DNA from: a plasmid
Length of the DNA: 64,000 nt
Sequence record: NZ_CP014093.1
Strand: one strand, 5' to 3'
The notes beneath the pieces are model-generated. The model was given only the letters and a program-made list of their open reading frames with translations, ran no database searches and was not told the origin of the DNA. The position numbers and the translations under genes were made by a program. How positions within the stretch are numbered: position 1 is the stretch's first letter; the number at the start of each line of letters is the position of its first letter. This document shows, in pieces, positions 1-13,955 of this stretch.

Positions 1-158
1 TGGGTAAAGAAGACCACGCTCTTAAAGTTGAAGATAGCTTGTCAAAACGATACTCAGAAAAAGAGCAACAAAAGCATGATGATGGAATACATGAACTAGA
101 GTCGTTAATGGAAAAGATAGATACCCTTTCAGAACTAACCGATACTCACGATTACTGA
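1..158 (+). CDS. hypothetical protein, C-terminal fragment truncated by window start (frame 3, ends TGA 156-158)
   Basis: Open frame from the window edge, ...LMEKIDTLSELTDTHDY*. Lies immediately upstream of the iteron region, so it could be a replication initiator, but no motif was recognised. Confidence 0.25.
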   Translation, partial: GKEDHALKVEDSLSKRYSEKEQQKHDDGIHELESLMEKIDTLSELTDTHDY

Positions 159-523
159 TAGCTAACAAGTTTTAGGTCATGGGCGCTATAGATGACATTT
201 TTTAGGTTGAAATGAGCTATGTGACACATTTTAGGTATATAAGCGAGAATCCGGCGTGATCATTGACTCGAAAGTAAAAAAAACCGGGCAAGACTTCTAT
301 GCAAGCATCTCACACACCTAAAATATGTCACTCAAGAACATAAACACCTAAAATATGTTATCCAACCACCTGATATATGATCACTTTCACCTAGATTATG
401 TCGCATTAAAGCCTGTAAGAAGATCACAAACACCTAATAAATGATCAATTAAACCTAGATCTTGTTACTTAAAGACCTAAAAAAAGATCTTTAAACGAAT
501 CAAACTTCTTTAATATCAATGAC

Positions 524-564
524 CTATGAGAACTATAGATCTTATAGATCTATAGTTCTCATAG
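524..564. repeat. 18-bp perfect inverted repeat with 5-bp spacer (CTATGAGAACTATAGATC-ttata-GATCTATAGTTCTCATAG)
   Basis: Reverse complement checked by hand. Each arm contains a GATC site. Confidence 0.8.
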
Positions 565-598
565 ATTAATATAGTTAAATATAGATCTTTATAGCGTA

Positions 599-607
599 TG
601 TGGATAA
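599..607 (+). promoter_or_regulatory. consensus DnaA box TGTGGATAA
   Basis: Exact 9-mer TTATCCACA on the complementary strand, adjacent to the iterons. Confidence 0.55.
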
Positions 608-1680
608 CTGGAAAATCAAAGATTTACACAGTTTCCCACATACACAACAAGTTTTTGTTGTTTAGATGAGTGAATGATCCTGGCTATAGACAACTGCGTG
701 TTATAACTAATAGTGGTAGGTCAATTTTCAATCTAACTGATAGATGGACGATGAAAGGTAAATTTGGCAGGCAGAACCGAATTGCGATCGTATTTGTGTG
801 AGTTCTTGACAAAAACACGAATTGACAGGAAATATTAATTACTGGATAGTTGTAAGTGTGCTCTAGAAGCAACAATGTACTTCTAGAGCGACAACGTTGT
901 CTAGCCGAATAGTGCTTGCACTATGGCTGTGACTAACTTGATTAAAGCAATCAAGAGATCAACTAACTTGACCATATCTACCTCTCCAAAGGCTTATGGT
1001 TAAAGACAACGCACAAGGGTTTTTTAATGGCGGCCACCATTGATTGCCCGTATGCACGAAGTGAAGCTTTCTAGCTGCTTCGAGCTTGGTTGGTGATTAC
1101 ATAATTACCTCCAAATTAATTAAAGGTTGGGTTCTTCGAATCCAGCCTTTTTTTATATTCATCACACGATCAAGGTTATGAGGGAACGTTTTGTTCGAAG
1201 CCTTGTTGCGCCTAGTATTTCAGACTCTTAGCTAATTTTGCAAACACCCAAATGGTCTGACTTTCTGTTTAAGGTTTAGGGCATGAAGATTCATAAGTTC
1301 TTGAGCTCTTATTTTTATCAGATAAATCTAACTACTCAAGAAACAGTTTGATATATCAGCGAAAACTATGAGCCTATTCCAATCGTTTTATTAGTATTAC
1401 TCTTCAAGGAATTGGATAATCTTATCCCGTTCAAAATTAAAATGCTTCTCCGAACAACTTATTTTTATTAAATGTATAGGTTTTTTGCGCAATTTGATCT
1501 CAATTCACAAAAAGCCTAAGTGTTGACCACATTAAACTCGACTAATTGACGTTAATTTCAGACGAATGCTCCGGTGTTTCCTCTGAAATTGGCGTCTGTT
1601 TCACTATACCTTTTCCTAATTTTGTCTCCTAGAAAACTGAGAATTTAGGACTAGGTTTCTTACTGTGTCACTTTCTTTTT

Positions 1681-2268: not shown

Positions 2269-2700
2269 ATGGGTGAGAGGATTTCTGAAATTAAGCGATC
2301 TCAACTGGAACACCGGCAAAGAGAGCGAGACGAAAGCTCACCATCAATCCTGGATACATTCGAGGGCATAGAGCCTACGGACGAACGCGAAGCTCTGGCG
2401 AACCGGTTACAAGATGCCGATGTGACATTGGACGACAAACCGGATCGCTGCCCGACTTGCAATGGCACAGGTTACACCAAGTCGTTATTTAGCAAGTGGG
2501 AGTGCTGTAGCTGTTTTGGGACTGGTTACGACCTTTCCGATCCGGTTGCCGTTATCAAGTGGCAAAAGCTCTGCCTCGATTGGTCAAAGAATCGGTTATA
2601 TGAATATCGCGTTGCATTGATTAAGGGGACTACAACCGAGGAAGAACGACTAGCAAGTGAAGTGGAGAGCTTCTATGAAAATGCGAGACGCAAAGACTAA
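2269..2700 (+). CDS. phage protein with DnaJ-like CxxCxGxG zinc-finger repeats
   Basis: CPTCNGTGYTKS...CCSCFGTGY motif. Confidence 0.5.
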   Translation: MGERISEIKRSQLEHRQRERDESSPSILDTFEGIEPTDEREALANRLQDADVTLDDKPDRCPTCNGTGYTKSLFSKWECCSCFGTGYDLSDPVAVIKWQKLCLDWSKNRLYEYRVALIKGTTTEEERLASEVESFYENARRKD

Positions 2701-2977
2701 ACAGGCCGCTCGAATCCAATCGCTTGAGTATCGACAGCAACGTGCAGCGCGAATCAAGCGAGCGAGACGGCATGCAGATTTAACCATACTCGAAATGAGC
2801 AGGTTAATCGGGTTATCACCAGACACTTATCGAAAAATCGAGAATGGCGAAGTGAACCCAAGGGTGCAAAACCTTGAACTGATAGCGGTCTACACAAGTA
2901 CAGACGTGGGTTATTTGTTCTTTGGTGATGCGATTTCTAACAGAGACGAAGCGGTAAAGAGAGATACCGGAGAATAA
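2657..2977 (+). CDS. HTH transcriptional regulator (XRE/Cro-like)
   Basis: MSRLIGLSPDTYRKIENGEVNPRVQNLELIAVY resembles an XRE-family helix-turn-helix. The basic N-terminus overlaps the upstream gene. Confidence 0.6.
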   Translation: MKWRASMKMRDAKTKQAARIQSLEYRQQRAARIKRARRHADLTILEMSRLIGLSPDTYRKIENGEVNPRVQNLELIAVYTSTDVGYLFFGDAISNRDEAVKRDTGE

Positions 2978-2980
2978 CGA

Positions 2981-3469
2981 ATGGCTTCAAGAGGCATTAA
3001 CAAGGTCATTCTGGTTGGTAACTTGGGGTCAGATCCCGAAATCCGATACCTGCCAAATGCGGCGCAGTAGCGAATATCACGATCGCTACATCCGAAACTT
3101 GGCGCGATAAAGCGACAGGGAGAACCGAGAAAAAACCGAGTGGCATCGAGTGGTGTTGTTCGGCAAGTTGGCCGAAGTAGCGGGGAGTTCCTACGCAAAG
3201 GGTCACAAGTTTACATCGAGGGTCAATTGCAGACTCGCAAATGGAAAGACAAGCAAGGCCAAGACCGTTACAGCACAGAGGTAGTAGTTCAAGGCTTTAA
3301 TGGCGTGATGCAAATGCTTGGCAATAACCGAGCTGGTGGCCAGCAACAACAAGGCGGTTGGGATCAATCTCAACAGCAATACGGCGAGCCACCAATGGAT
3401 TTTGACGATGAAATACCGTTCCAGAACGAGTTTCGTCATTACAAGATGCTGAGTTACGTGGCGGCTTGA
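2981..3469 (+). CDS. ssb: single-stranded DNA-binding protein, interrupted by three -1 frameshifts (each a lost G in a G-run)
   Basis: The N-terminus [26 protein letters not shown] matches SSB. The body continues through frames 2, 1, 0 and 2 ([20 protein letters not shown] / [22 protein letters not shown] / [15 protein letters not shown]...), and the protein ends with the SSB acidic tail [11 protein letters not shown]. Confidence 0.8.
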
Positions 3470-3472
3470 ACG

Positions 3473-3772
3473 GTGAGTAAGCAAAATTTAGCGTTAGCAA
3501 CTCAAGACGACTTACTGATTGTATTGCGTCGAATGACCACTAAAGCGCTTATGGAAATGCGCGAGGCGACAGGCGAAACGGATTTTACGGACACACCAAG
3601 TGCTTTTTATTTCAGTAACCGTGCAATCGCGGCAGAAGTAAACGGGTGTTCGGGTCATGTGGCCGAACTAATCCAAGACAGCTACCTCGACTACGTTCAC
3701 AAAGGTAGCGAAATACTGGTTTGGCTGGATGACTTAGAAGAACGCCTAGAGCGCTTTGCTAACCAAGAATAA
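3473..3772 (+). CDS. hypothetical phage protein
   Basis: 99-aa ORF in operon with ssb. Confidence 0.4.
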   Translation: MSKQNLALATQDDLLIVLRRMTTKALMEMREATGETDFTDTPSAFYFSNRAIAAEVNGCSGHVAELIQDSYLDYVHKGSEILVWLDDLEERLERFANQE

Positions 3773-3897
3773 AACACTTTAACCCTATTCCCTTATCCCA
3801 ATTTTTGAGTAGTAGAGAAATTGCCCGATGAGCGATGTTTTTACTGTAGAGCTTCCTTGGTGCGCCAGCTATCCAAGATGACTCAACCTATTGGGAC

Positions 3898-4242
3898 GTG
3901 CTTGGAACCTTATGGAAAGCGCAAGGCTCGCACCAACATCAATATGTGTGGTCGTCCCTGTTTACGTGCCCGAGACGCAACAAGCACAAGGTTATGAAGT
4001 CGTCAGAGCGCAAGGCGTTCGCCAAGCTACCCAAGGTGATCACTGCCTACCGCGCTATCAATGACGAATCCGAAATCGAAACTGCACTTTGTTGGACGCT
4101 ATCTGAGGACATTGCTAAGCGTGTTTTCTCTCAAGGAGGCCGCCGCAAGGTGGTATCTAAGCAATTCACCAAGGACGAGGTGTTTGCCTACTTCAACCAC
4201 CGTAAGGAGCAAGAGATTTTAGTTGTACAAGGGCTTATCTAG
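3898..4242 (+). CDS. hypothetical protein
   Basis: ORF abutting the VRR-NUC gene. The true start may be an internal Met. Confidence 0.35.
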   Translation: MLGTLWKAQGSHQHQYVWSSLFTCPRRNKHKVMKSSERKAFAKLPKVITAYRAINDESEIETALCWTLSEDIAKRVFSQGGRRKVVSKQFTKDEVFAYFNHRKEQEILVVQGLI

Positions 4243-4244
4243 TT

Positions 4245-4964
4245 ATGGCCAGAGCACCACGATTCGATCACTCTTTTCTCGCAAACCAAGTTGCTAAGCG
4301 CAAGAAGTGGAAAAGCAAAGGCGTGAAAGCTGGCCACGGCGGCGATTTCAATATCGATGCAGCACTTAACGAGATTAACCGTTCTGTTAATCACATCATC
4401 AATCCGGTATCGATAAACGTCCCAAATACTGCGCTGGTGGACAAGTCAGAGCTACCAGCCTGGCTCATTCGTATTCTTGAGAAAGACATTGACGTTGCGC
4501 GCGCTGCGACACAGAAGAAAGTGGAACTGGATTCACCACACAAAACGCGCCTTGCACAAGGGATTAAGCGCCCGAAAGAGTTTAACGACACGAAGCTGGC
4601 AGAACACTGGTTACAGGTGCGTTTGTTCTACACGTTAGAGACGCAGTACAAGGACATTTACCCGCTGGTTTTCTCAATCCCTAATGGTGGCTACCGAACA
4701 CCTAAAGCGGCTTCGATGATGAGCTATGAGGGACAAAAGAAAGGTGTGCCAGATATATTTTTTCCTATCCCGAGAGGGGTGTATCACGGGTTCTTTTTGG
4801 AGGTGAAAACGGAAAAAGGTCGCCCAAGTAAGGAACAACAGGAAAAGATAAAAATTTTCCAAAATCTAGGGTATTACGTGGTTGTGGCCAAGGGTTTGAT
4901 GAGTGCATTTGTCAAATTAATAGCTATCTCCAATTGCCAACATTTGATAACAAAACTAGACTAG
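4245..4964 (+). CDS. VRR-NUC domain nuclease (PD-(D/E)xK)
   Basis: C-terminal GVPDIFFPIPRGVYHGFFLEVKTEKGRPSKEQ matches the VRR-NUC signature (G.PD...G..FEVK...S..Q). Confidence 0.7.
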   Translation: MARAPRFDHSFLANQVAKRKKWKSKGVKAGHGGDFNIDAALNEINRSVNHIINPVSINVPNTALVDKSELPAWLIRILEKDIDVARAATQKKVELDSPHKTRLAQGIKRPKEFNDTKLAEHWLQVRLFYTLETQYKDIYPLVFSIPNGGYRTPKAASMMSYEGQKKGVPDIFFPIPRGVYHGFFLEVKTEKGRPSKEQQEKIKIFQNLGYYVVVAKGLMSAFVKLIAISNCQHLITKLD

Positions 4965-4998
4965 CCGCATAAGTATATAAAAAGGGCTTAGTTATCTC

Positions 4999-5697
4999 AT
5001 GTTAGCGAGTGAATATCACAGCATTGGCCAAAAGCCAGTTGATTTAGACGTGTTAGAAGCAACAAAGGTAGTCCGTAACTTCCTATGCGATTACCTTTAC
5101 TATGACAAGTTGTTGCTAAGCTATGCTCCCGCAGGGGAATTTGGTAGCGCTCAAGCGTATCGCTGGCTTACTGGTGGTCATATTTGTGACTACGATGCTA
5201 CTGGCGACACAATTGCACCAAGAGAGAAGATCAACTATCGAGTCATTAGAATGCTATTCGATGCTGGTCTAATCAAAGTAAAAACCAACATCCGAACGCC
5301 ACATACTCGCTGCGTTATCTTTGAATGGGTTCGAGACATTAAGAAATATCGTCGTGAAATCCTCCGTACTAAAATCTTTGGCGAGAATGTTTACCTCACT
5401 AGCGCAATGATTGATGCTACAGCGGCGCAATATGGTCTGACCGTGACGTTTGTCGGTGCGAGAGGTGTCTTTGAGATATTGGATGGTAATGGCAACTCAA
5501 TCCCGAACGGCCAAGCCAAGAACACCTACATATTCATGAATAGTGTTGGTGAGCCAGTAGGCCGACTACGTGATATGTCCTATTGGGAATGGGAACAATA
5601 CTTATACGACACAGCGACACGCGCCAAGCTGCGCAAAACGCCTCTCAAAGTTCGTGATGGCATGCGCAGCCACTTTTCGGAGTTCAAACGAGCTTAA
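4999..5697 (+). CDS. hypothetical phage protein
   Basis: 232-aa ORF followed by a terminator. Confidence 0.45.
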   Translation: MLASEYHSIGQKPVDLDVLEATKVVRNFLCDYLYYDKLLLSYAPAGEFGSAQAYRWLTGGHICDYDATGDTIAPREKINYRVIRMLFDAGLIKVKTNIRTPHTRCVIFEWVRDIKKYRREILRTKIFGENVYLTSAMIDATAAQYGLTVTFVGARGVFEILDGNGNSIPNGQAKNTYIFMNSVGEPVGRLRDMSYWEWEQYLYDTATRAKLRKTPLKVRDGMRSHFSEFKRA

Positions 5698-5726
5698 CGC
5701 CAATCCTTGATCATCTTTCCACAAAT

Positions 5727-5753
5727 GCCGCCTATATGGGCGGTATTTTTTTG
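5727..5753 (+). terminator. rho-independent terminator
   Basis: CCGCC-tatatg-GGCGG followed by a T7 run. Confidence 0.6.
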
Positions 5754-5771
5754 TATTAAAAACAGAAATCG

Positions 5772-5781
5772 TGTTCGGAAT
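5772..5781 (+). promoter_or_regulatory. element motif TGTTCGGAAT (copy 1 of a tandem pair)
   Basis: GTGTTCGGAAT repeated 20 bp apart. The second copy ends 3 bp before a TATAAT box (5805-5810). The ATG is at 5817, so the transcript is probably leaderless. Confidence 0.55.
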
Positions 5782-5791
5782 ATTTACGGCG

Positions 5792-5801
5792 TGTTCGGAA
5801 T
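5792..5801 (+). promoter_or_regulatory. element motif TGTTCGGAAT (copy 2 of the tandem pair)
   Basis: As above. Confidence 0.55.
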
Positions 5802-5816
5802 GGTTATAATCGTCTC

Positions 5817-6086
5817 ATGGCAGGACGTAAACCCAAGAAAAACGCCTTAACCCCTCAGCAGCGCTGGAATCGTCATCTTGCCAAGATGGCTAGGTTTGAC
5901 ATTAAACGTCAATACTATCGCGCCAGCGCGACACAACGAGAGCAAATTAGGCGACTCCAAATAGAACTTGGCTGTAGCAGTCGAGAAGAACTGGTTCTTT
6001 ATGCCATCAATCTTCTAGGCCAACAGCACGGAATTTATCTGAAAGATATTCAAGAGGACTTAGCGTGTCTAAACAAAAAGCCGTAG
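5817..6086 (+). CDS. hypothetical basic protein
   Basis: 89-aa ORF immediately after a motif/TATAAT promoter. Confidence 0.4.
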   Translation: MAGRKPKKNALTPQQRWNRHLAKMARFDIKRQYYRASATQREQIRRLQIELGCSSREELVLYAINLLGQQHGIYLKDIQEDLACLNKKP

Positions 6087-6388
6087 GTAAGCACGAACTG
6101 ATCTCAGCAATGAAGAAAGAAACGGGCGCATTACGTGAAGAATGCGAGCTGGTTTTTGATGCCTTTATCGAAGAAATCTCAACTCAAACCATGATTGAGG
6201 GCAATGCTGTATTGCTTAGTGGTTTCGGTACGTTCGCACCTCGCCTTAAGAAAGCGCGAGCTGGCCGTAATCCAAAAACGGGAGCACCAGCGATTGTGGC
6301 TGCGCGAGACAAGCTGACTTTTAGTGCATCGGATGTATTCCGCGATGAGCTGGCAAGCAAGGTAAACGAGATCAAGGGGGCACATTAA
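6065..6388 (+). CDS. HU/IHF-family DNA-binding protein
   Basis: LSGFGTFAPRLKKARAGRNPKTGAPAIVAARDKLTFSAS resembles the bacterial histone-like DNA-bending arm. Confidence 0.75.
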   Translation: MSKQKAVGKHELISAMKKETGALREECELVFDAFIEEISTQTMIEGNAVLLSGFGTFAPRLKKARAGRNPKTGAPAIVAARDKLTFSASDVFRDELASKVNEIKGAH

Positions 6389-6684
6389 TGAGCACACGCT
6401 TAAACCGAACTGACATTGAAAGAAACATTTCTAAACGCCTTGGCTTAAAGCTTACTGGTGATGATGCAGAGCTGGTGGGCGATTGTCTGGATGCAATGAT
6501 CAATCACATTCTGGTTGAGATTGCGAAAGGTCGTGAGGTGCAAATTCGAGGCTTTGGCCGTTTCCGTCACATAGAGCGTGAACGCACAACCATTAATCCG
6601 GCGACGAAAGAGCTCTTAGGTGTCAAAACCGAGCACAGCGTATTGTTCTCTGCTTACAAGGGCATGGTACGCGTCCATGAATGA
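6388..6684 (+). CDS. HU/IHF-family DNA-binding protein (second subunit)
   Basis: QIRGFGRFRHIERERTTINPATKELLGVKTEHSVLF. ATGA overlap with the previous gene. Confidence 0.75.
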   Translation: MSTRLNRTDIERNISKRLGLKLTGDDAELVGDCLDAMINHILVEIAKGREVQIRGFGRFRHIERERTTINPATKELLGVKTEHSVLFSAYKGMVRVHE

Positions 6685-6919
6685 TAGCAAGGCAATTGGG
6701 CTACGTGTCTTTATCGGCTCCGTTCGGCTACTGGCTATAACTATTGTGTTAGCGCTGGTGGCTGTTGTCGGTATTGGCACATACAGCTTTTATGGATTGG
6801 TGGTCTATCCAAAGATAGAGCGAGTGAAGATTGATTTGGACGCAGAGCGCATCGAGCGCATTACGGTAGCGGCCAAGAGTGGGGAGAAGTCAGAGAATGG
6901 CGCACCTAGTCAAAAGTAA
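6620..6919 (+). CDS. small membrane protein (real start probably an internal Met near 6680)
   Basis: Single TM helix VRLLAITIVLALVAVVGIGTYSFYGLVV. Confidence 0.35.
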   Translation: MSKPSTAYCSLLTRAWYASMNDSKAIGLRVFIGSVRLLAITIVLALVAVVGIGTYSFYGLVVYPKIERVKIDLDAERIERITVAAKSGEKSENGAPSQK

Positions 6920-7535
6920 GACCGTCGAGGGCGCAAAGAATAAATGGGCGACTCGTTGGGACTGCTTCTTTGATGCTCAATTCCTCTTTCGACGTGATAC
7001 CGGAAAAGAGTTTGTTTTAGACGTGGCCGCCGAGCCACAAACCGCCAAGGTGAACCGCTTCTATGTGGCTCCTGACTGGATTAACGAACAGCCGAGCGGA
7101 TTCCCAAGCCTTAAGCCAAAACACAAGGCCGCTCAGCTCCTAAACCCTGTTTGTGTTGGGTTCGATGGCCTACAAGGCGAATGGGAAGATGGCTGGTGGT
7201 GCAATCCTCCGTTCGACCTTAAGTTTGAGTTTCTGGAAAAGGCGCTAGAACAAGCCAGGAAAGGTCGTGACGGCATGATGCTGTTACCACATGAAGAACT
7301 CACAACGTGGTGGCTGGACTTGGTTGAGGGCTACGCCACGATGATTTACAAGCCGGATGGTCGTTACCCGTTCTATGAGACAGATGGACACACCAAAAAG
7401 CAAGGTGTGAACTTCGGCAGTGCATTAGTGCTCTTTACCGAGAAAGGTCTACAAACACCATCCATGCGCTTTAACCGTAAGGTAGGCAGAACGCACCTTA
7501 CTGATATCTATGAGCAAATCGCTAAAGTGGCTTAA
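6879..7535 (+). CDS. phage N6-adenine DNA methyltransferase (Dam-like, NPPF motif)
   Basis: GWWCNPPFDLKFEFLEKALEQARKG matches the catalytic (D/N)PP(F/Y) motif of the phage N6-adenine methyltransferase family. Confidence 0.7.
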   Translation: MGRSQRMAHLVKSKTVEGAKNKWATRWDCFFDAQFLFRRDTGKEFVLDVAAEPQTAKVNRFYVAPDWINEQPSGFPSLKPKHKAAQLLNPVCVGFDGLQGEWEDGWWCNPPFDLKFEFLEKALEQARKGRDGMMLLPHEELTTWWLDLVEGYATMIYKPDGRYPFYETDGHTKKQGVNFGSALVLFTEKGLQTPSMRFNRKVGRTHLTDIYEQIAKVA

Positions 7536-7549
7536 GGGAGTGAGCTACT

Positions 7550-8035
7550 ATGAGTGTTCAATATCAGGGTCAATCGATGAGCGTGTACCGTCTCGCTCAG
7601 TTAACTGGCTATCCAATGACTTCCCTTTATCGCGCGTATCACAAAGGACTACGAACCGGAGAGGAACTACTGGCCGAGGCTACCAAGCACCTTGTGACCT
7701 ACCAAGGCAAGGTAATGACCGCAAGACAGCTATGCGCCGCTACCGATACCAGTTACCGCCGAGTGCTAAGACGCCTTAAGGCTGGTGTACCCGCTGAAAA
7801 GGCCGTAAAGGACAACGTAGACCGCCGAGGAACGAACTGCGCATCCAAGCTATCCCCTAGCGAAGTTCTACGCATCTACGAGCTCTTATTCACTAAGCAG
7901 GTATGCCAACACACGTTAGCCGAGGAATACGGGGTGCACCAGTCCACGATTAGCGACATATGGCGACATAAACGTTGGGGATGGCTTACTGCTCCGCTTC
8001 GATACCAGTTAGAGGGGAAAGCAAGCTATGAGTAA
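7550..8035 (+). CDS. DNA-binding protein (HTH), possible phage transcription regulator
   Basis: Two HTH-like segments (SVYRLAQLTGYPMTSLYRAY and TLAEEYGVHQSTISDIWRHK). Confidence 0.4.
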   Translation: MSVQYQGQSMSVYRLAQLTGYPMTSLYRAYHKGLRTGEELLAEATKHLVTYQGKVMTARQLCAATDTSYRRVLRRLKAGVPAEKAVKDNVDRRGTNCASKLSPSEVLRIYELLFTKQVCQHTLAEEYGVHQSTISDIWRHKRWGWLTAPLRYQLEGKASYE

Positions 8036-8288
8036 ACCAAGGGTCTATGTATTCACGCTTAAGGTGAAGAAAACGCGCCTAGTGACGGTACTTAGATTCA
8101 AACACCAATGGTTAGCCTACATGGCCATTAAGCATCTGAAAAAGCGATTCTGGTTTGCTGACCTACAGTTTAGGCAAATCACGCCTCTTAATGCGCTCTG
8201 GTACTTCTTTTTGATAAAGATTGGCTACTACGAAACACTCAAGAAAGCCACCAGCAAAAAGCGACAGAAACAATCTTTAAATTGGTAA
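8028..8288 (+). CDS. hypothetical protein
   Basis: 86-aa ORF overlapping the previous stop. Confidence 0.35.
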   Translation: MSKPRVYVFTLKVKKTRLVTVLRFKHQWLAYMAIKHLKKRFWFADLQFRQITPLNALWYFFLIKIGYYETLKKATSKKRQKQSLNW

Positions 8289-8323
8289 AAATCACAAAAT
8301 GAAATGCAAACTAATATTGTGAT

Positions 8324-8333
8324 ATGTTCGGAA
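8324..8333 (+). promoter_or_regulatory. element motif TGTTCGGAAT upstream of a TATTAT -10-like box
   Basis: Exact 10-mer. Confidence 0.5.
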
Positions 8334-8529
8334 TGAGTTTAGTATTATCCCCATAGGACAGTGACGGATACGACTTCCTATACGGTGCGCTTGTTTAATA
8401 AGGTTGTGCAAGCGTTGTAGGGTAAAAACCTACAGGCTCCCAAAGAGGGCAAAGGGTTGATCTTCGAAAGAGGGTTAGCCCTTTGTTCTATCTATCCCCT
8501 ACCAAAGAGCGTCTATATGAGTAGGCACT

Positions 8530-8694
8530 ATGAGAAAAGTCCACGAACTATTCTGGCATCGCAAACACGACCGCATCCTTAAGCGAGAACTGGCCAAGGA
8601 TAAGCTGTACACCAAAGAGCTGGATAACTCCCTACGCAAGATGATTCACGAGATAAACAATCACCTTAAGCAAACTGAAAGTAGTGTTGGCTAG
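8530..8694 (+). CDS. small hypothetical protein (55 aa, below the ORF-track cutoff)
   Basis: ATG..TAG ORF MRKVHELFWHRKHDRILKRELAKDKLYTKELDNSLRKMIHEINNHLKQTESSVG read directly from the sequence. Confidence 0.3.
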   Translation: MRKVHELFWHRKHDRILKRELAKDKLYTKELDNSLRKMIHEINNHLKQTESSVG

Positions 8695-8709
8695 GTGGTT
8701 ATAACAAAG

Positions 8710-8743
8710 TTGACACTTTGAGTCAAAGGTATACAATATTATT
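8710..8743 (+). promoter_or_regulatory. mazEF-like promoter TTGACA-N16/17-TACAAT bracketed by inverted repeat GTTATAACAA...TTGTTATAAC (putative autoregulatory operator)
   Basis: Near-consensus sigma70 boxes. A 10-bp inverted repeat flanks them at 8697-8706 and 8744-8753. Confidence 0.55.
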
Positions 8744-8776
8744 GTTATAACATCGTACTAACATGAGAGGTGGATT

Positions 8777-9031
8777 ATGCGTACTCAAGTGCGAAAAATA
8801 GGGAATAGCCTCGGTAACATCATCCCTGCTGCCTTTATCAAGCAATTAGGGCTAGCGGAGGGGGCGGATATTGAGGTTAAAACTGATGGTGGCAAGATAA
8901 TCATTGAGCCAATCAAGCGCCCAAAAAAAAGCTTTCCATTTAGCGAAAAAGAACTATTGAAAGGTTTAGATGCACATACGGCACACGCCGATGAGCTGGC
9001 AATAGTTTCAGGCAAGGAGTTAGGTGAATAA
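8777..9031 (+). CDS. mazE: MazE/PemI-like antitoxin (AbrB/SpoVT fold)
   Basis: MRTQVRKIGNSLGNIIPAAFIKQLGLAEGADIEVK is a SpoVT/AbrB swapped-hairpin motif. Start overlaps the next gene (ATGG). Confidence 0.75.
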   Translation: MRTQVRKIGNSLGNIIPAAFIKQLGLAEGADIEVKTDGGKIIIEPIKRPKKSFPFSEKELLKGLDAHTAHADELAIVSGKELGE

Positions 9032-11073: not shown

Positions 11074-12468
11074 GTGTCCGGCAAGATTGACTATCAGGCT
11101 CACCAACAGCAGTTTTGGGAGCAGTTAGAGAAGCAGCCGACTTTGACGCTGGCCGAGTATTGCGAAGCCAACGGACTAAAGTACGGCACCGCTAAGCGAT
11201 ATATAAAACGGCCAGCCAAAACGGGCGGCAAGTTCCAACCGTCCGTTATGCCAAAAATCAAAGCGAAAAAGACCAGTCAGGGCAATGACTGGCATTCCCT
11301 TTTGAAAGAATTTCTCGTGCGTGGCGCTCAAAACCCAACGCTCACGATGGCCGCTTTTGCGAAAGATAAAGGGGTGAACGGTGCGACATTGCGCCGCCAG
11401 TTTAATTCCATGCGATCGCTGCCCGAGTTTGATCGATTATTTGATCTTTACGATGAGCAATTAGCGAAATTTCAAGAAGCGAAAAACGACAAGAAGAAAA
11501 AAAGGGCTGATAAATCAAAGTCCAAAGAAGCGGGGGCAACTGCGCAAGCGCAAAGTGCGCAAGGCGATCGCGCGAAAACAGGAGGTATTGGATCACTGCG
11601 CAAGCCGCGATCAGTTGAGGGACTTTCGCAGTATTCCAGTGCTCAAGTGGGTCGCCCTGTTGTGCATGGTGGTTATGCCCGTAGTGCGGGTATTACTGGC
11701 GAAATCATGGATATTCTCATGGATACCGATCCGCTTTCGGTTTGCAACGAACTGATTATTGCCCGTTCGCAGTATTACCGAATGAATGAGACGTTAGCTA
11801 AACGCCTTAAAGAGATCGATGAAATGGAAGAAAGCGGAGACATTCCGCTCAATGACGAAAACCAGCCAGTAGACATAAACGCCATGCGTGACCGTCTCAT
11901 CTTTGGCTATGGCACCAGATTGCGTGAACTGGAATTGAGTATTTCCACGATGGCCAAACAAGAGGCCAAGCGCTACATCGATTTGCGTAAACAGGAATAC
12001 GCTGAATTGATGATGCCACACTTACTGCCAGCGGAAGAAACCAGCCTAGTAATAGAAATGCTTTCTCTGCGCACTAAGAACAACTGGACAGCCTTAGAGA
12101 CGTGTCAGCAAATCGAGAAGTTAGGTGCACGTCCACCAGCAACGCTATTGCATGAAGCTAAGGTAGAGCTAGCGAACCTAGAACCAGAAGTAGAAGACAC
12201 TGGTATCAGTGAGCAAGAGCTGGATGAGCTGTTTGATGACTACACGTTAGAGCAGATTGAGCAGCAAGATAACTGGCTACCTGCGCGCAAAGAAGAAGTA
12301 AACCGACGAATCAAAGAAGCCGAAGACCTAGAGAACGGCGTAGAACCTACCCTATCCCCATCCCAAATACAAAACGAAGCCGCTAAAGAGCAAGCCTATG
12401 ATGACCTCGATAACGAGGGAGTGTCGGGGTTTGACGATGTAGACAGCTTCGAGGTACTTGGTGGCTAG
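11074..12468 (+). CDS. putative terminase small subunit / DNA-packaging protein with acidic C-terminus
   Basis: N-terminal HTH-like TLAEYCEANGLKYGTAKRYIKRP. Lies directly upstream of the large terminase, and the C-terminus is very acidic. GTG start. Confidence 0.45.
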   Translation: MSGKIDYQAHQQQFWEQLEKQPTLTLAEYCEANGLKYGTAKRYIKRPAKTGGKFQPSVMPKIKAKKTSQGNDWHSLLKEFLVRGAQNPTLTMAAFAKDKGVNGATLRRQFNSMRSLPEFDRLFDLYDEQLAKFQEAKNDKKKKRADKSKSKEAGATAQAQSAQGDRAKTGGIGSLRKPRSVEGLSQYSSAQVGRPVVHGGYARSAGITGEIMDILMDTDPLSVCNELIIARSQYYRMNETLAKRLKEIDEMEESGDIPLNDENQPVDINAMRDRLIFGYGTRLRELELSISTMAKQEAKRYIDLRKQEYAELMMPHLLPAEETSLVIEMLSLRTKNNWTALETCQQIEKLGARPPATLLHEAKVELANLEPEVEDTGISEQELDELFDDYTLEQIEQQDNWLPARKEEVNRRIKEAEDLENGVEPTLSPSQIQNEAAKEQAYDDLDNEGVSGFDDVDSFEVLGG

Positions 12469-12526: not shown

Positions 12527-13955
12527 ATGACTGGAAACGCCTCGCTGTTGAGCTAGTCGGTAAGAAGCCGAGCTGGCAGCAGCGCAAAATCATTGATAGT
12601 GCTCAGCGTATTGGTGCGCGAACGACTGTCAGCTCTGGCCACGGTACAGGCAAGTCAGACATGACCAGTATCATGATCATTGCTTTCATGCTCTGTTTCC
12701 CCAATGCGCGTGTTGTGCTGGTGGCGAACAACGCGAGACAGGTACAAATCGGTGTATGGAAGTACCTAAAATCCAACTGGAACACGCTCTTACAAAAGCA
12801 TGGTTGGTTACAGCAATACTTCACCATTACCGAGACAGCCTTTTTTGAAAACTCAGCAAAAGGTATCTGGCAAACCAGTGCTAAATCGTGCCGTATTGGT
12901 AACGAGGAAGCGCTAGCGGGTGAACACGCTAAACACTTGTTTGTTATTGTCGATGAGGCGTCAGGCGTCTCTGACAAGGCTTTTGGTGTGTTAGCGGGTG
13001 CATTGACCGAGAAAGATAACCGAATGCTGTTATTGAGCCAGCCAACGCGCCCTAGCGGCTATTTCTACGATACGCATCACCGATTAGCCGAGCCTAGTGG
13101 TCGATGGCGAGCCATCCGGCTTAACTCCGAGGAATCGCCGTTCGTAACCGTGGAATTTATCCTCGATAAGCGATTGGAGTATGGCGGTCGAGAGGCACCG
13201 GAATACCTGATTAAAGTACGTGGGGAGTTCCCAAGTTCCATTGCTGGCATGCTGCTTAGTCGGGATGCACTGGACAAAAGCGCAAGGCTCAACCTCGATA
13301 TGCCCGATGGTTGGGGTTGGGCTGCGCTGGTGGACGTGGGTAATGGTCGTGACCGCTCGATACTCAATATCTGCAAGGTTTGGGGTCAACGCATGGAGCG
13401 CATCGTTAAGAGCGTGAAATTGCTTGAACAACCAAGCACGGTCGATCCGGTTCGGTTCGCTGACATTATCCATGCAGAGTGTAGTGAGGACTTGTACCCA
13501 AACATCACGATAGCAGTGGATAGTGACGGTGTAGGTTATGACACGGCGACTTGCTTAGAACGCTACGGACGGCGCGTACAGCGCATTCGTTGGGGTAAGA
13601 AGATGCACTCCACCAGCGATAAGCAGCGTTTCTTTAACCAGCGTGCGTATGCCAATGTTATGGCTCGGGATGCGATAAACCAAGGCCGCATGCAGATAGA
13701 TAAGAACGTCAAGACGGCAGAACAAGGCAGTAAAATACCTTGTGCAATCAACGAGTCAGGCCAATGGGTAATGATGCCAAAACCGATGATGAAAGAGAAA
13801 ATGAACATCCATCACCTGACCGTTGGGATACATACTGTTTTTCTCAATTGGTAGATTATGTGCCGCACGAAATGGAAGTAACAGAGAGCATGCTAGAGTC
13901 TCGCAGTTCCGTAGAACAATGGGTACTGGAAGCGCTTGAATCGGACGATGCTTAA
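12527..13955 (+). CDS. terL: terminase large subunit, with at least two -1 frameshifts and an ambiguous start
   Basis: Walker A [13 protein letters not shown] and Walker B LFVIVDEASGV are present. The frame is open from 12469 (just after the upstream TAG) with no ATG, GTG or TTG before 12661. The ATG at 12527 lies in the -1 frame, consistent with a lost G in CTGG. The C-terminus probably continues in ORF 13740-13955 after another shift. Confidence 0.7.

Follow-up and report, generated by a model that had tools for sequence, protein, structure and literature searches.

What keeps the element behind plasmid sequence record NZ_CP014093.1 replicating outside the chromosome? The question is raised by a 64,000-nucleotide stretch of this record (the window; positions are counted along its given strand), in which a cluster of short repeats follows the end of a truncated open reading frame (ORF). 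Our analysis showed that positions ~160–660 are, with high probability, the vegetative (plasmid-maintenance) origin of a Rep_3 iteron replicon, which keeps a ~120–140 kb Vibrio phage-plasmid extrachromosomal. A first-pass annotation, made from the sequence alone, had proposed an iteron-type, GATC-dense, DnaA-box-bearing plasmid-like origin with its initiator just upstream, and this core reading is supported. It had also placed the origin at the edge of a phage-like element, which is not the case: portal and head genes lie upstream of rep, and the origin is inside the phage-plasmid. The origin is of the ordinary iteron type. Its chief oddity is a conserved GATC within four of the seven phased repeats to which the initiator is predicted to bind.

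The window opens within the initiator gene:

3–158, plus strand: 3' end of rep, the last 51 codons and the stop of a 358-amino-acid (aa) Rep_3 initiator (51/51 residues identical)

The truncated ORF at 1–158 had been named as candidate initiator. It does encode a Rep_3 C-terminus, in reading frame 3 (3–158) and not in frame 1. Its translation is identical over all 51 residues to the C-terminus of the 358-aa Rep proteins in three loci (L005, L018 and L019), and the close relatives encode a 358-aa 'replication initiation protein' whose end coincides exactly with that of the window's truncated ORF. The lack of an initiator gene upstream, which the first-pass annotation had said would speak against an origin, was thus checked in the close relatives, and a Rep_3 initiator was found there. 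The body of rep lies outside the window, and the properties of Rep were taken from orthologues that are 99–100% identical. A full-length orthologue matched the Pfam domains Rep3_N (E = 3.9e-25; 89 bits, cut-off 22) and Rep3_C (E = 3.6e-7; 31 bits, cut-off 21).

Sequence searches of the PDB with Rep and with a 25-member profile gave chance matches only, and a fold search was therefore needed. We used the AlphaFold model of a 99%-identical orthologue (P0001; predicted local distance difference test score, pLDDT, 74). Foldseek matched this model to RepE of F (E = 1e-8), Pi of R6K (E = 1.6e-6) and the WH1 domain of pPS10 RepA (E = 2e-4). The top 38 PDB matches were all RepE or Pi (E from 1e-8 to 4e-6), followed by pPS10 RepA WH1, and domains 2–3 of RctB (5ubf) appeared at rank 40 (E = 1e-2). 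Residues ~270–356 of the model form long helices, a C-terminal extension of ~90 aa that is partly encoded in the window and is absent from classical Rep_3 proteins. Before the rep start, most non-phage relatives carry iteron-like copies in an operator-type inverted arrangement (at about −87 on the minus strand, −55 and −35); these copies are weak (~11 bits) or incomplete in the window's own phage-plasmid clade.

Homologous DNA was found in 83 plasmid records of Vibrio, Photobacterium and Aliivibrio. Positions 1–2300 match about nine Vibrio plasmids (eight of V. alginolyticus and one of Vibrio sp.; 93–217 kb, 87–93% identity), most of them with phage genes, and the remainder of the window matches the same plasmid family. 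Because the close relatives are complete circular plasmids that carry ParAB together with portal, head, terminase and baseplate genes, the element is regarded as a phage-plasmid. A further set of over 60 plasmids from Vibrio, Photobacterium and Aliivibrio matches positions 346–641 at ~75% identity, and in these the same 358-aa rep is followed by the origin. We aligned the DNA from 60 bp before to ~640 bp after the rep stop for the window together with 18 loci, which were taken from plasmids, genomes and viral contigs (Rep identity 79–100%). The same rep followed by the same origin was found in 16 of the 17 loci compared, at ~75% overall DNA identity. Locus L007 has unrelated DNA after rep, and the other 16 distinct sequences share the origin features. 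The arrangement of rep, repeats and DnaA box recurs in every Vibrionaceae plasmid or contig examined other than L007.

The repeats that follow rep are listed here with their scores in a position-weight scan and their conservation in the alignment:

165–177, minus strand: inverted iteron 1 (ACCTAAAACTTGT), 7 bp past the rep stop; 11.4 bits, aligned copy in relatives
195–207, minus strand: inverted iteron 2 (ACCTAAAAAATGT); 17.2 bits
224–236, minus strand: inverted iteron 3 (ACCTAAAATGTGT); 16.8 bits, the best-conserved inverted copy
316–328, plus strand: extra direct iteron, 30 bp ahead of the phased array; 19.3 bits
346–358, plus strand: phased iteron 1, type A (ending TGTTAT, no GATC); 24.7 bits
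368–380, plus strand: phased iteron 2, type B (ending ATGATCAC; GATC at 379); GATC in 17/17 aligned sequences
389–401, plus strand: phased iteron 3, type A (ending TGTCGC); found by alignment and scan
411–423, plus strand: phased iteron 4, type B with degenerate 5' half (GCCT, ending AAGATCAC; GATC at 422); GATCA in 17/17
432–444, plus strand: phased iteron 5, type B (ending ATGATCAA; GATC at 443); 25.3 bits, GATC in 17/17
453–465, plus strand: phased iteron 6, type A (ending CTTGTTAC; a GATC of the window's clade inside, at 458); TGT[CTA]A in 17/17, GATC in 7/17
475–487, plus strand: phased iteron 7, type B (ending AAAGATCT; GATC at 486); 22.7 bits, GATC in 17/17

Direct ACCTAAAATATGT-like copies thus start at 316, 346, 368, 389, 411 (degenerate, GCCT), 432, 453 and 475, with spacings of 30, 22, 21, 22, 21, 21 and 22 bp. 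Seven of them (346–487) are phased at ~21–22 bp, as had been described, and the direct copies number eight in all; the inverted copies upstream, counted as two in the first reading, are three. Matches to the repeat with up to three mismatches are not enriched over the whole window (29 versus 29.6 in shuffles), but nine of the 29 fall within 165–487, where 0.15 would be expected (Poisson P ~9e-14). In the position-weight scan, 10 of the 12 matches of at least 10 bits lay in 160–492, the copy at 453 being unscored because of an alignment gap. The weight-matrix scan detected no second iteron cluster in the 64-kb window or in the relatives' flanks.

The order of the iteron types is fixed as A-B-A-B-B-A-B, where type A ends in TGTCA or TGTTA and type B in GATCA, and the array is free of indels in all relatives except L014 (a single 1-bp gap). 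The copy at 316 is clearly conserved and in register only within the phage-plasmid clade, and it is deleted in pMBL128. In most non-phage plasmids inverted iteron 3 opposes a direct copy ~15 bp away and so forms a palindrome, which is lost in the phage-plasmid clade. This palindrome, TGACACATTTTAGGTG-N15-ACCTAAAATGTGTCA, stands ~60–110 bp past the rep stop in L003, L004 and most non-phage relatives (aligned to window 222–275), and its right arm is swapped in the phage-plasmid clade for unrelated sequence containing the GATC at 258. Most ordinary plasmids also have an additional inverted copy ~500–540 bp past the rep stop, which is missing in the window.

On the side away from rep, the array is followed by AT-rich repeats and by candidate sites for host proteins:

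514–526, plus strand: degenerate IHF-like site (TATCAATGACCTA, one mismatch to WATCAANNNNTTR); perfect in 8/16 relatives
524–564, no strand: perfect inverted repeat of 18/19 bp, specific to the window sequence; 4–10 bp in relatives
535–597, plus strand: candidate DNA-unwinding element, seven ATAG(A/T)T(C/T/A) repeats with a period of 9–10 bp; low stability, GC content 0.22
599–607, minus strand: perfect DnaA box TTATCCACA; invariant in all 16 origin-bearing relatives
614–626, plus strand: IHF consensus AATCAAAGATTTA (WATCAANNNNTTR); the sole match in 1–2300, at equal offset in 16/16 relatives
622–640, plus strand: two DnaA-box-like 9-mers, ATTTACACA (622–630) and TTTCCCACA (632–640); each one mismatch from TTWTNCACA

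The ATAG repeats start at 535, 544, 552, 561, 571, 581 and 591, and GATC occurs in them at 538, 547 and 584. The least stable 60-bp duplex of the first 3 kb is 534–593 (−59.2 kcal/mol versus a mean of −76.8, standard deviation 6.1), and the relatives have 6–8 ATAG copies at the same positions. The DnaA box reported at 599–607 is confirmed as a perfect match; the 64 kb hold just one other perfect box. Of the two DnaA-like 9-mers, the one at 622–630 is invariant in the alignment and the one at 632–640 is largely conserved. The host-factor module TGTGGATAACTGGAAAATCAAAGATTTACACAG, which comprises the DnaA box, the IHF site and a DnaA-like 9-mer, is identical in 14 of the 16 relatives, and the single substitutions in the remaining two spare both the DnaA box and the IHF site. 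A second IHF consensus at −85 or −84 from the DnaA box is perfect in half of the relatives (8/16) and has one mismatch in the window. Homology between the plasmid clades stops near 660. The 18-bp inverted repeat at 524–564, to which the first reading had drawn attention, is perfect (arms 524–541 and 547–564, extendable to 19 bp with a 3-nt loop) but not conserved, the longest in the relatives being 4–10 bp; the ATAG/CTAT repeats give rise to it as a by-product.

If the repeats are binding sites for Rep, they should differ where Rep differs. A protein search found 156 relatives, all of the Rep_3 family, in Vibrio, Photobacterium, Pseudoalteromonas, Colwellia, Motilimonas and others. Four members with 50–60% Rep identity were inspected:

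L024, V. breoganii: ACACTAAAT-type iterons, ~7 with GATC; ATAG element and identical DnaA/IHF module
L020, Pseudoalteromonas: five 21-bp iterons from ATACCA to TGATCA, GATC in each; upstream of rep, iterons that lack GATC; also an AT-rich stretch and TGTGTATAA
L022, V. tubiashii: 21-bp iterons from AAGTTTGC to GATCA; order DnaA box, CTAT-rich stretch, iterons, rep, parAB
L030, Motilimonas: 21-bp iterons from ACACCG to AGATC; ATAG repeats and tandem DnaA boxes

These relatives differ in the specificity half of their iterons (ACACTAAA, ATACCA, AAGTTTGC and ACACCG), and all four keep the phasing of 21 bp, the GATC at the iteron end and an AT-rich stretch with ATAG/CTAT. The DnaA box is perfect in three and has one mismatch in L020. 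One iteron half changes with the initiator, as expected of a Rep-binding site, and this co-variation gives indirect support, from sequence comparison, to binding of the iterons by Rep.

Rep_3 iteron theta replicons are represented by mini-F (RepE, ori2), R6K (Pi, gamma ori), pPS10 (RepA) and pSC101 (RepA). Each of their features that could be examined was found in this replicon: an initiator with WH1 and WH2 domains (Rep3_N and Rep3_C) and a RepE/Pi-like fold, tandem iterons of one orientation spaced by about two helical turns beside rep, inverted partial iterons at the rep promoter (seen in the relatives), and, adjoining the iterons, sites for DnaA and IHF along with an AT-rich unwinding element. 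In pSC101 the order is DnaA box, AT-rich/IHF region, iterons, and the same order is seen here. The replicon differs in that rep lies on the iteron side and is transcribed toward the origin, with its operator 1.1 kb from the array, in that three inverted iterons abut the rep stop, in the C-terminal helical extension of Rep (~90 aa), and in its two alternating iteron flavours, one of which bears GATC. The iteron sequence itself is unrelated to those of F, R6K and pSC101.

The region is also dense in GATC. The earlier count of eight sites within 230 bp was right: eight lie in 379–587 (212 bp) versus 0.59 expected (P ~2e-7), which is the window's densest 230-bp stretch, and a ninth lies near the origin at 258. 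The GATCs of all four type B iterons (379, 422, 443 and 486) are present in 17 of 17 aligned sequences. The unwinding element has an invariant GATC at 584, a mostly conserved one at 538 and a variable one at 547. The element encodes a methyltransferase of its own, which had been correctly recognised as a Dam-type N6-adenine enzyme:

6879–7535, plus strand: Dam-family N6-adenine methyltransferase, element-encoded, a possible modulator; PF05869 (Dam) E = 7e-16, phrog_111 DNA methyltransferase E = 1e-32

This gene had been taken as a pointer to methylation-controlled initiation. The link is weak, as pFORC54 (32.6 kb) has the same origin with an equal GATC pattern and no annotated adenine methyltransferase. 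The GATC pattern for this reason belongs to the replicon, and it presumably depends on host Dam. The origin GATCs can be explained without the element's own Dam; a role for that enzyme as a modulator at the origin is possible.

Two known systems bear on what these GATCs might do. In Vibrio ori2, phased 12-mers that bear GATC need methylation for RctB binding, and SeqA blocks re-initiation by sequestering the origin (PMC4551981, PMC6090056). The present origin comes from the same host family as ori2/oriCII of V. cholerae chromosome 2 and resembles it in the Dam sites within its phased iterons. It differs in having a 358-aa RepE-like initiator and not the four-domain RctB (E = 1e-2 for 5ubf versus 1e-8 for RepE), in having GATC in only four of its seven phased iterons (some distant members of the family have one in all of theirs), and in the position of the DnaA box, which is on the opposite side of the AT-rich region. 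By analogy with such systems, methylation control of initiation would be a reasonable reading.

The second system is P1 oriR, which Abeles and Austin reportedly described in 1987 as Dam-dependent, with DnaA boxes, an AT-rich region of short GATC-bearing repeats, and iterons. P1 is likewise a phage-plasmid, and the order of DnaA boxes, GATC-repeat AT-rich region and iterons appears to be shared. The possible counterpart of the P1 7-mers in our origin is a set of seven ATAG(A/T)TC-like repeats, of which three have GATC in the window and about two are conserved. The distant member L022 shares with P1 the full order of DnaA box, AT-rich region, iterons, rep and parAB, and the element, like P1, has its own Dam-family methyltransferase and a Ref-family gene. 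The differences are that the initiator here is classed as Rep_3, that GATC is found both within the iterons and in the AT-rich repeats, and that a large incA-like iteron cluster is lacking, the inverted copies numbering just three. Bidinost et al. reportedly described, in 1999, an origin with many Dam sites in pMJ101 of V. ordalii as well.

Other Vibrionaceae replicons proved less similar. The marine RNA-based (MRB) plasmids, such as pB1067, lack both a Rep gene and iterons in their origins and rely on two RNAs (PMC3035462). They share with our replicon a wide distribution restricted to marine Vibrionaceae, and they are unrelated to it, as the origin here has Rep and iterons. An MRB identity of the more than 60 plasmids that match 346–641 was ruled out in the same way, since all carry the 358-aa rep and MRB origins lack iterons and Rep (PMC3035462). 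Two plasmids were considered as characterised relatives and rejected. The RepB origin of Pseudoalteromonas pMBL6842, a plasmid that has been compared with P1, has different iterons (GTGTAG, TTTGTA) and a different position, upstream of repB (PMC7848731), and the paper on pVT1 found no iterons and describes a different Rep family. In the record of pLA16-3, which was checked for a use of the replicon by the shrimp-pathogen plasmid pVA1, no toxin genes were found in the half examined, and we make no claim on pVA1.

The following model takes its initiation steps from the established behaviour of Rep_3 replicons and its methylation steps from analogy with Vibrio ori2 and P1 oriR. Rep monomers (358 aa) would occupy the seven helically phased 21–22-bp iterons (346–487), which point toward the AT-rich ATAG unwinding element (535–597). 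Host IHF would bend the DNA at 614–626 and possibly also at 514–526, and host DnaA would bind the perfect box at 599–607 and the weaker boxes at 622–640. Rep, IHF and DnaA together would melt the ATAG element and load DnaB. Rep dimers on the three inverted iterons by the rep stop and on the inverted pair before rep (in the relatives) may serve copy control and rep autorepression. Replication activity and protein binding are thus what we infer from the anatomy of this origin. Because conserved GATCs occur in the unwinding element and in four of the phased iterons, initiation is most likely tied to the host Dam/SeqA cycle, in which the hemimethylated origin would be sequestered after replication. 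Binding of Rep to the GATC-bearing iterons may also require full methylation; if four of the seven are methylation-sensitive, a hemimethylated origin would be left with three usable iterons.

A bolder proposal, which we consider speculative and rather unlikely as a whole, is that a marine Rep_3 clade (Vibrio, Photobacterium, Pseudoalteromonas, Motilimonas) has methylation-gated iterons: full methylation would be a precondition for Rep to bind the GATC iterons, these would be held by SeqA once replicated, and the phage-plasmid's Dam would shorten or abolish this eclipse on induction. If true, induction together with the element's Dam would turn the origin from once-per-cycle to runaway replication.

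Some observations weigh against the reading of ~160–660 as a methylation-regulated Rep_3 origin. Locus L007 (V. owensii DY05 contig_32) has an orthologous rep with operator-like copies upstream, and its downstream DNA is GC-richer, unrelated and without the origin; it may be a rearranged or defective replicon. The GC skew of a complete relative shows only a shallow local minimum plateau near the origin, its global extreme tracking gene orientation, and the skew of the window does not single out the site. The searchable literature yielded no experiment on this replicon and no description of its origin, and string searches with the iteron and DnaA-module sequences returned nothing relevant. Finally, the GATC always stands at the same end of the iteron, where type A has TGTCA, and this 2-nt difference is as expected of a protein contact.

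The last point leads to the most serious alternative, a Rep_3 iteron origin in which the GATCs have no regulatory role: TGATCA would lie merely within the Rep recognition sequence, and methylation would be irrelevant. This is a real, though lesser, possibility. The family plasmids that keep the GATC pattern without an adenine methyltransferase of their own would also fit it. However, GATCA in iteron 4 is invariant (17/17) despite the degenerate and variable ACCT half, GATC recurs outside the iterons in the unwinding element with an invariant site at 584, and it is retained in relatives whose iteron specificity half is wholly different. The GATC-bearing iterons of Vibrio chromosome 2 are, moreover, methylation-dependent (PMC4551981, PMC6090056).

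The array could instead be a copy-control/incompatibility locus or a partition centromere, with the true origin elsewhere on the plasmid. Iteron clusters outside origins do exist, as in P1 incA, parA directly follows the repeats in two distant relatives, and the GC skew has no distinct signal at the array. We nevertheless hold this to be improbable: the least stable DNA directly adjoins the array, together with a perfect DnaA box and an IHF site, and all of these are invariant; a second iteron cluster is absent from the window and the relatives' flanks, and ParAB lies ~13 kb away in a close relative. Least credible of all is the view that the repeats are arm-type integrase sites of an attP region, or a phage lytic origin rather than a plasmid origin: the element does encode a tyrosine recombinase and phage genes, but the same repeats always stand beside the same rep, also in ordinary 32–118 kb plasmids showing no phage genes, they co-vary with Rep, and the recombinase is ~16 kb from the origin in a close relative, so that the att-site interpretation, which the first-pass annotation itself had named as the finding that would speak against an origin, was checked and excluded.

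Next to the plasmid-maintenance origin, the DNA on the right had been described as 1.3 kb of ORF-free AT-rich sequence. There is indeed no ORF longer than 63 aa in 660–1895, but this DNA is only mildly AT-rich (GC content 0.36 versus 0.42 in the window, and 0.41 in 857–1157) and probably contains a structured RNA. It is heterogeneous, with conserved islands at ~800–900 and 1050–1200 and a variable part at 1250–1800, and is followed by a conserved 77-aa ORF on the minus strand (1896–2129). The variable part is only 35–70% identical among relatives that are otherwise 90–99% identical, with indels of 40–245 bp, and is a hot spot of local replacement between the RNA candidate and the 77-aa ORF.

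822–1157, plus strand: probable ~300-nt structured non-coding RNA (857–1157) with its signals, ~200 bp right of the origin

These signals are a promoter-like TTGACA-17-GATAGT at 822–850 and a terminator hairpin with a T-run at 1122–1157. The RNA fold of 855–1160 has −107 kcal/mol (z = −8.1 versus z = −4.4 on the opposite strand), and RNAalifold with 8 sequences gave 93 pairs, of which 15 have compensatory double changes. The candidate is 75–99% conserved in the phage-plasmid relatives, its 3' third with an ACCUCC motif being invariant, and it is absent from ordinary plasmids that share the origin. An Rfam scan of 1–2400 gave nothing significant, and a tRNA scan found none in the window. A piece of ~85 nt (window 965–1053; L028 1501–1576) is 87–89% identical to the lytic Vibrio phages qdvp001, where it lies within a gene-free stretch of ~1 kb, and IBT_VpB-34, where it lies under an annotated hypothetical protein. 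The similarity suggests a shared phage RNA module.

Beyond the origin, window ~2270–9000 and L019 carry a block of DNA-metabolism and stability genes, which comprises a helix-turn-helix regulator, SSB, a VRR-NUC nuclease, two HU genes, Dam and MazEF, and further along a Ref-family protein and CcdAB; the combination of Ref and Dam is reminiscent of P1. Two adjacent HU/IHF-family genes of the plus strand (6065–6388 and 6388–6684; PF00216, E = 4e-20 and 2e-11) precede the Dam gene by ~200 bp, and their products could form an HU/IHF heterodimer that acts at the origin's invariant IHF consensus. The second-densest GATC cluster of the window (11414–11817; 8 sites in 404 bp) is inside the ORF at 11074–12468, which encodes the terminase small subunit (phrog_370, E = 2e-69), and the large subunit is encoded just downstream at 12661–13854. 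P1 has a Dam-regulated pac site within pacA. By analogy, the cluster may be a methylation-sensitive pac site, which would give the element's Dam an alternative role.

The replicon belongs to a known kind, the Rep_3 iteron replicons, and the GATC-bearing iterons found across the family are its one feature deserving experiment. For a replicon used by many Vibrionaceae plasmids, which databases have so far listed merely as 'replication initiation protein' or under a rep_cluster number, the analysis gives a base-level map of the origin, in which the iterons, the unwinding element and the sites for DnaA and IHF are placed. An ordinary, widely shared plasmid replicon, together with ParAB, keeps a large vibriophage genome, and this helps to recognise phage-plasmids and to predict their incompatibility. 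The conserved iteron GATCs also make it testable, in a small and non-essential replicon, whether initiation is under Dam/SeqA-gated control as in Vibrio chromosome 2.

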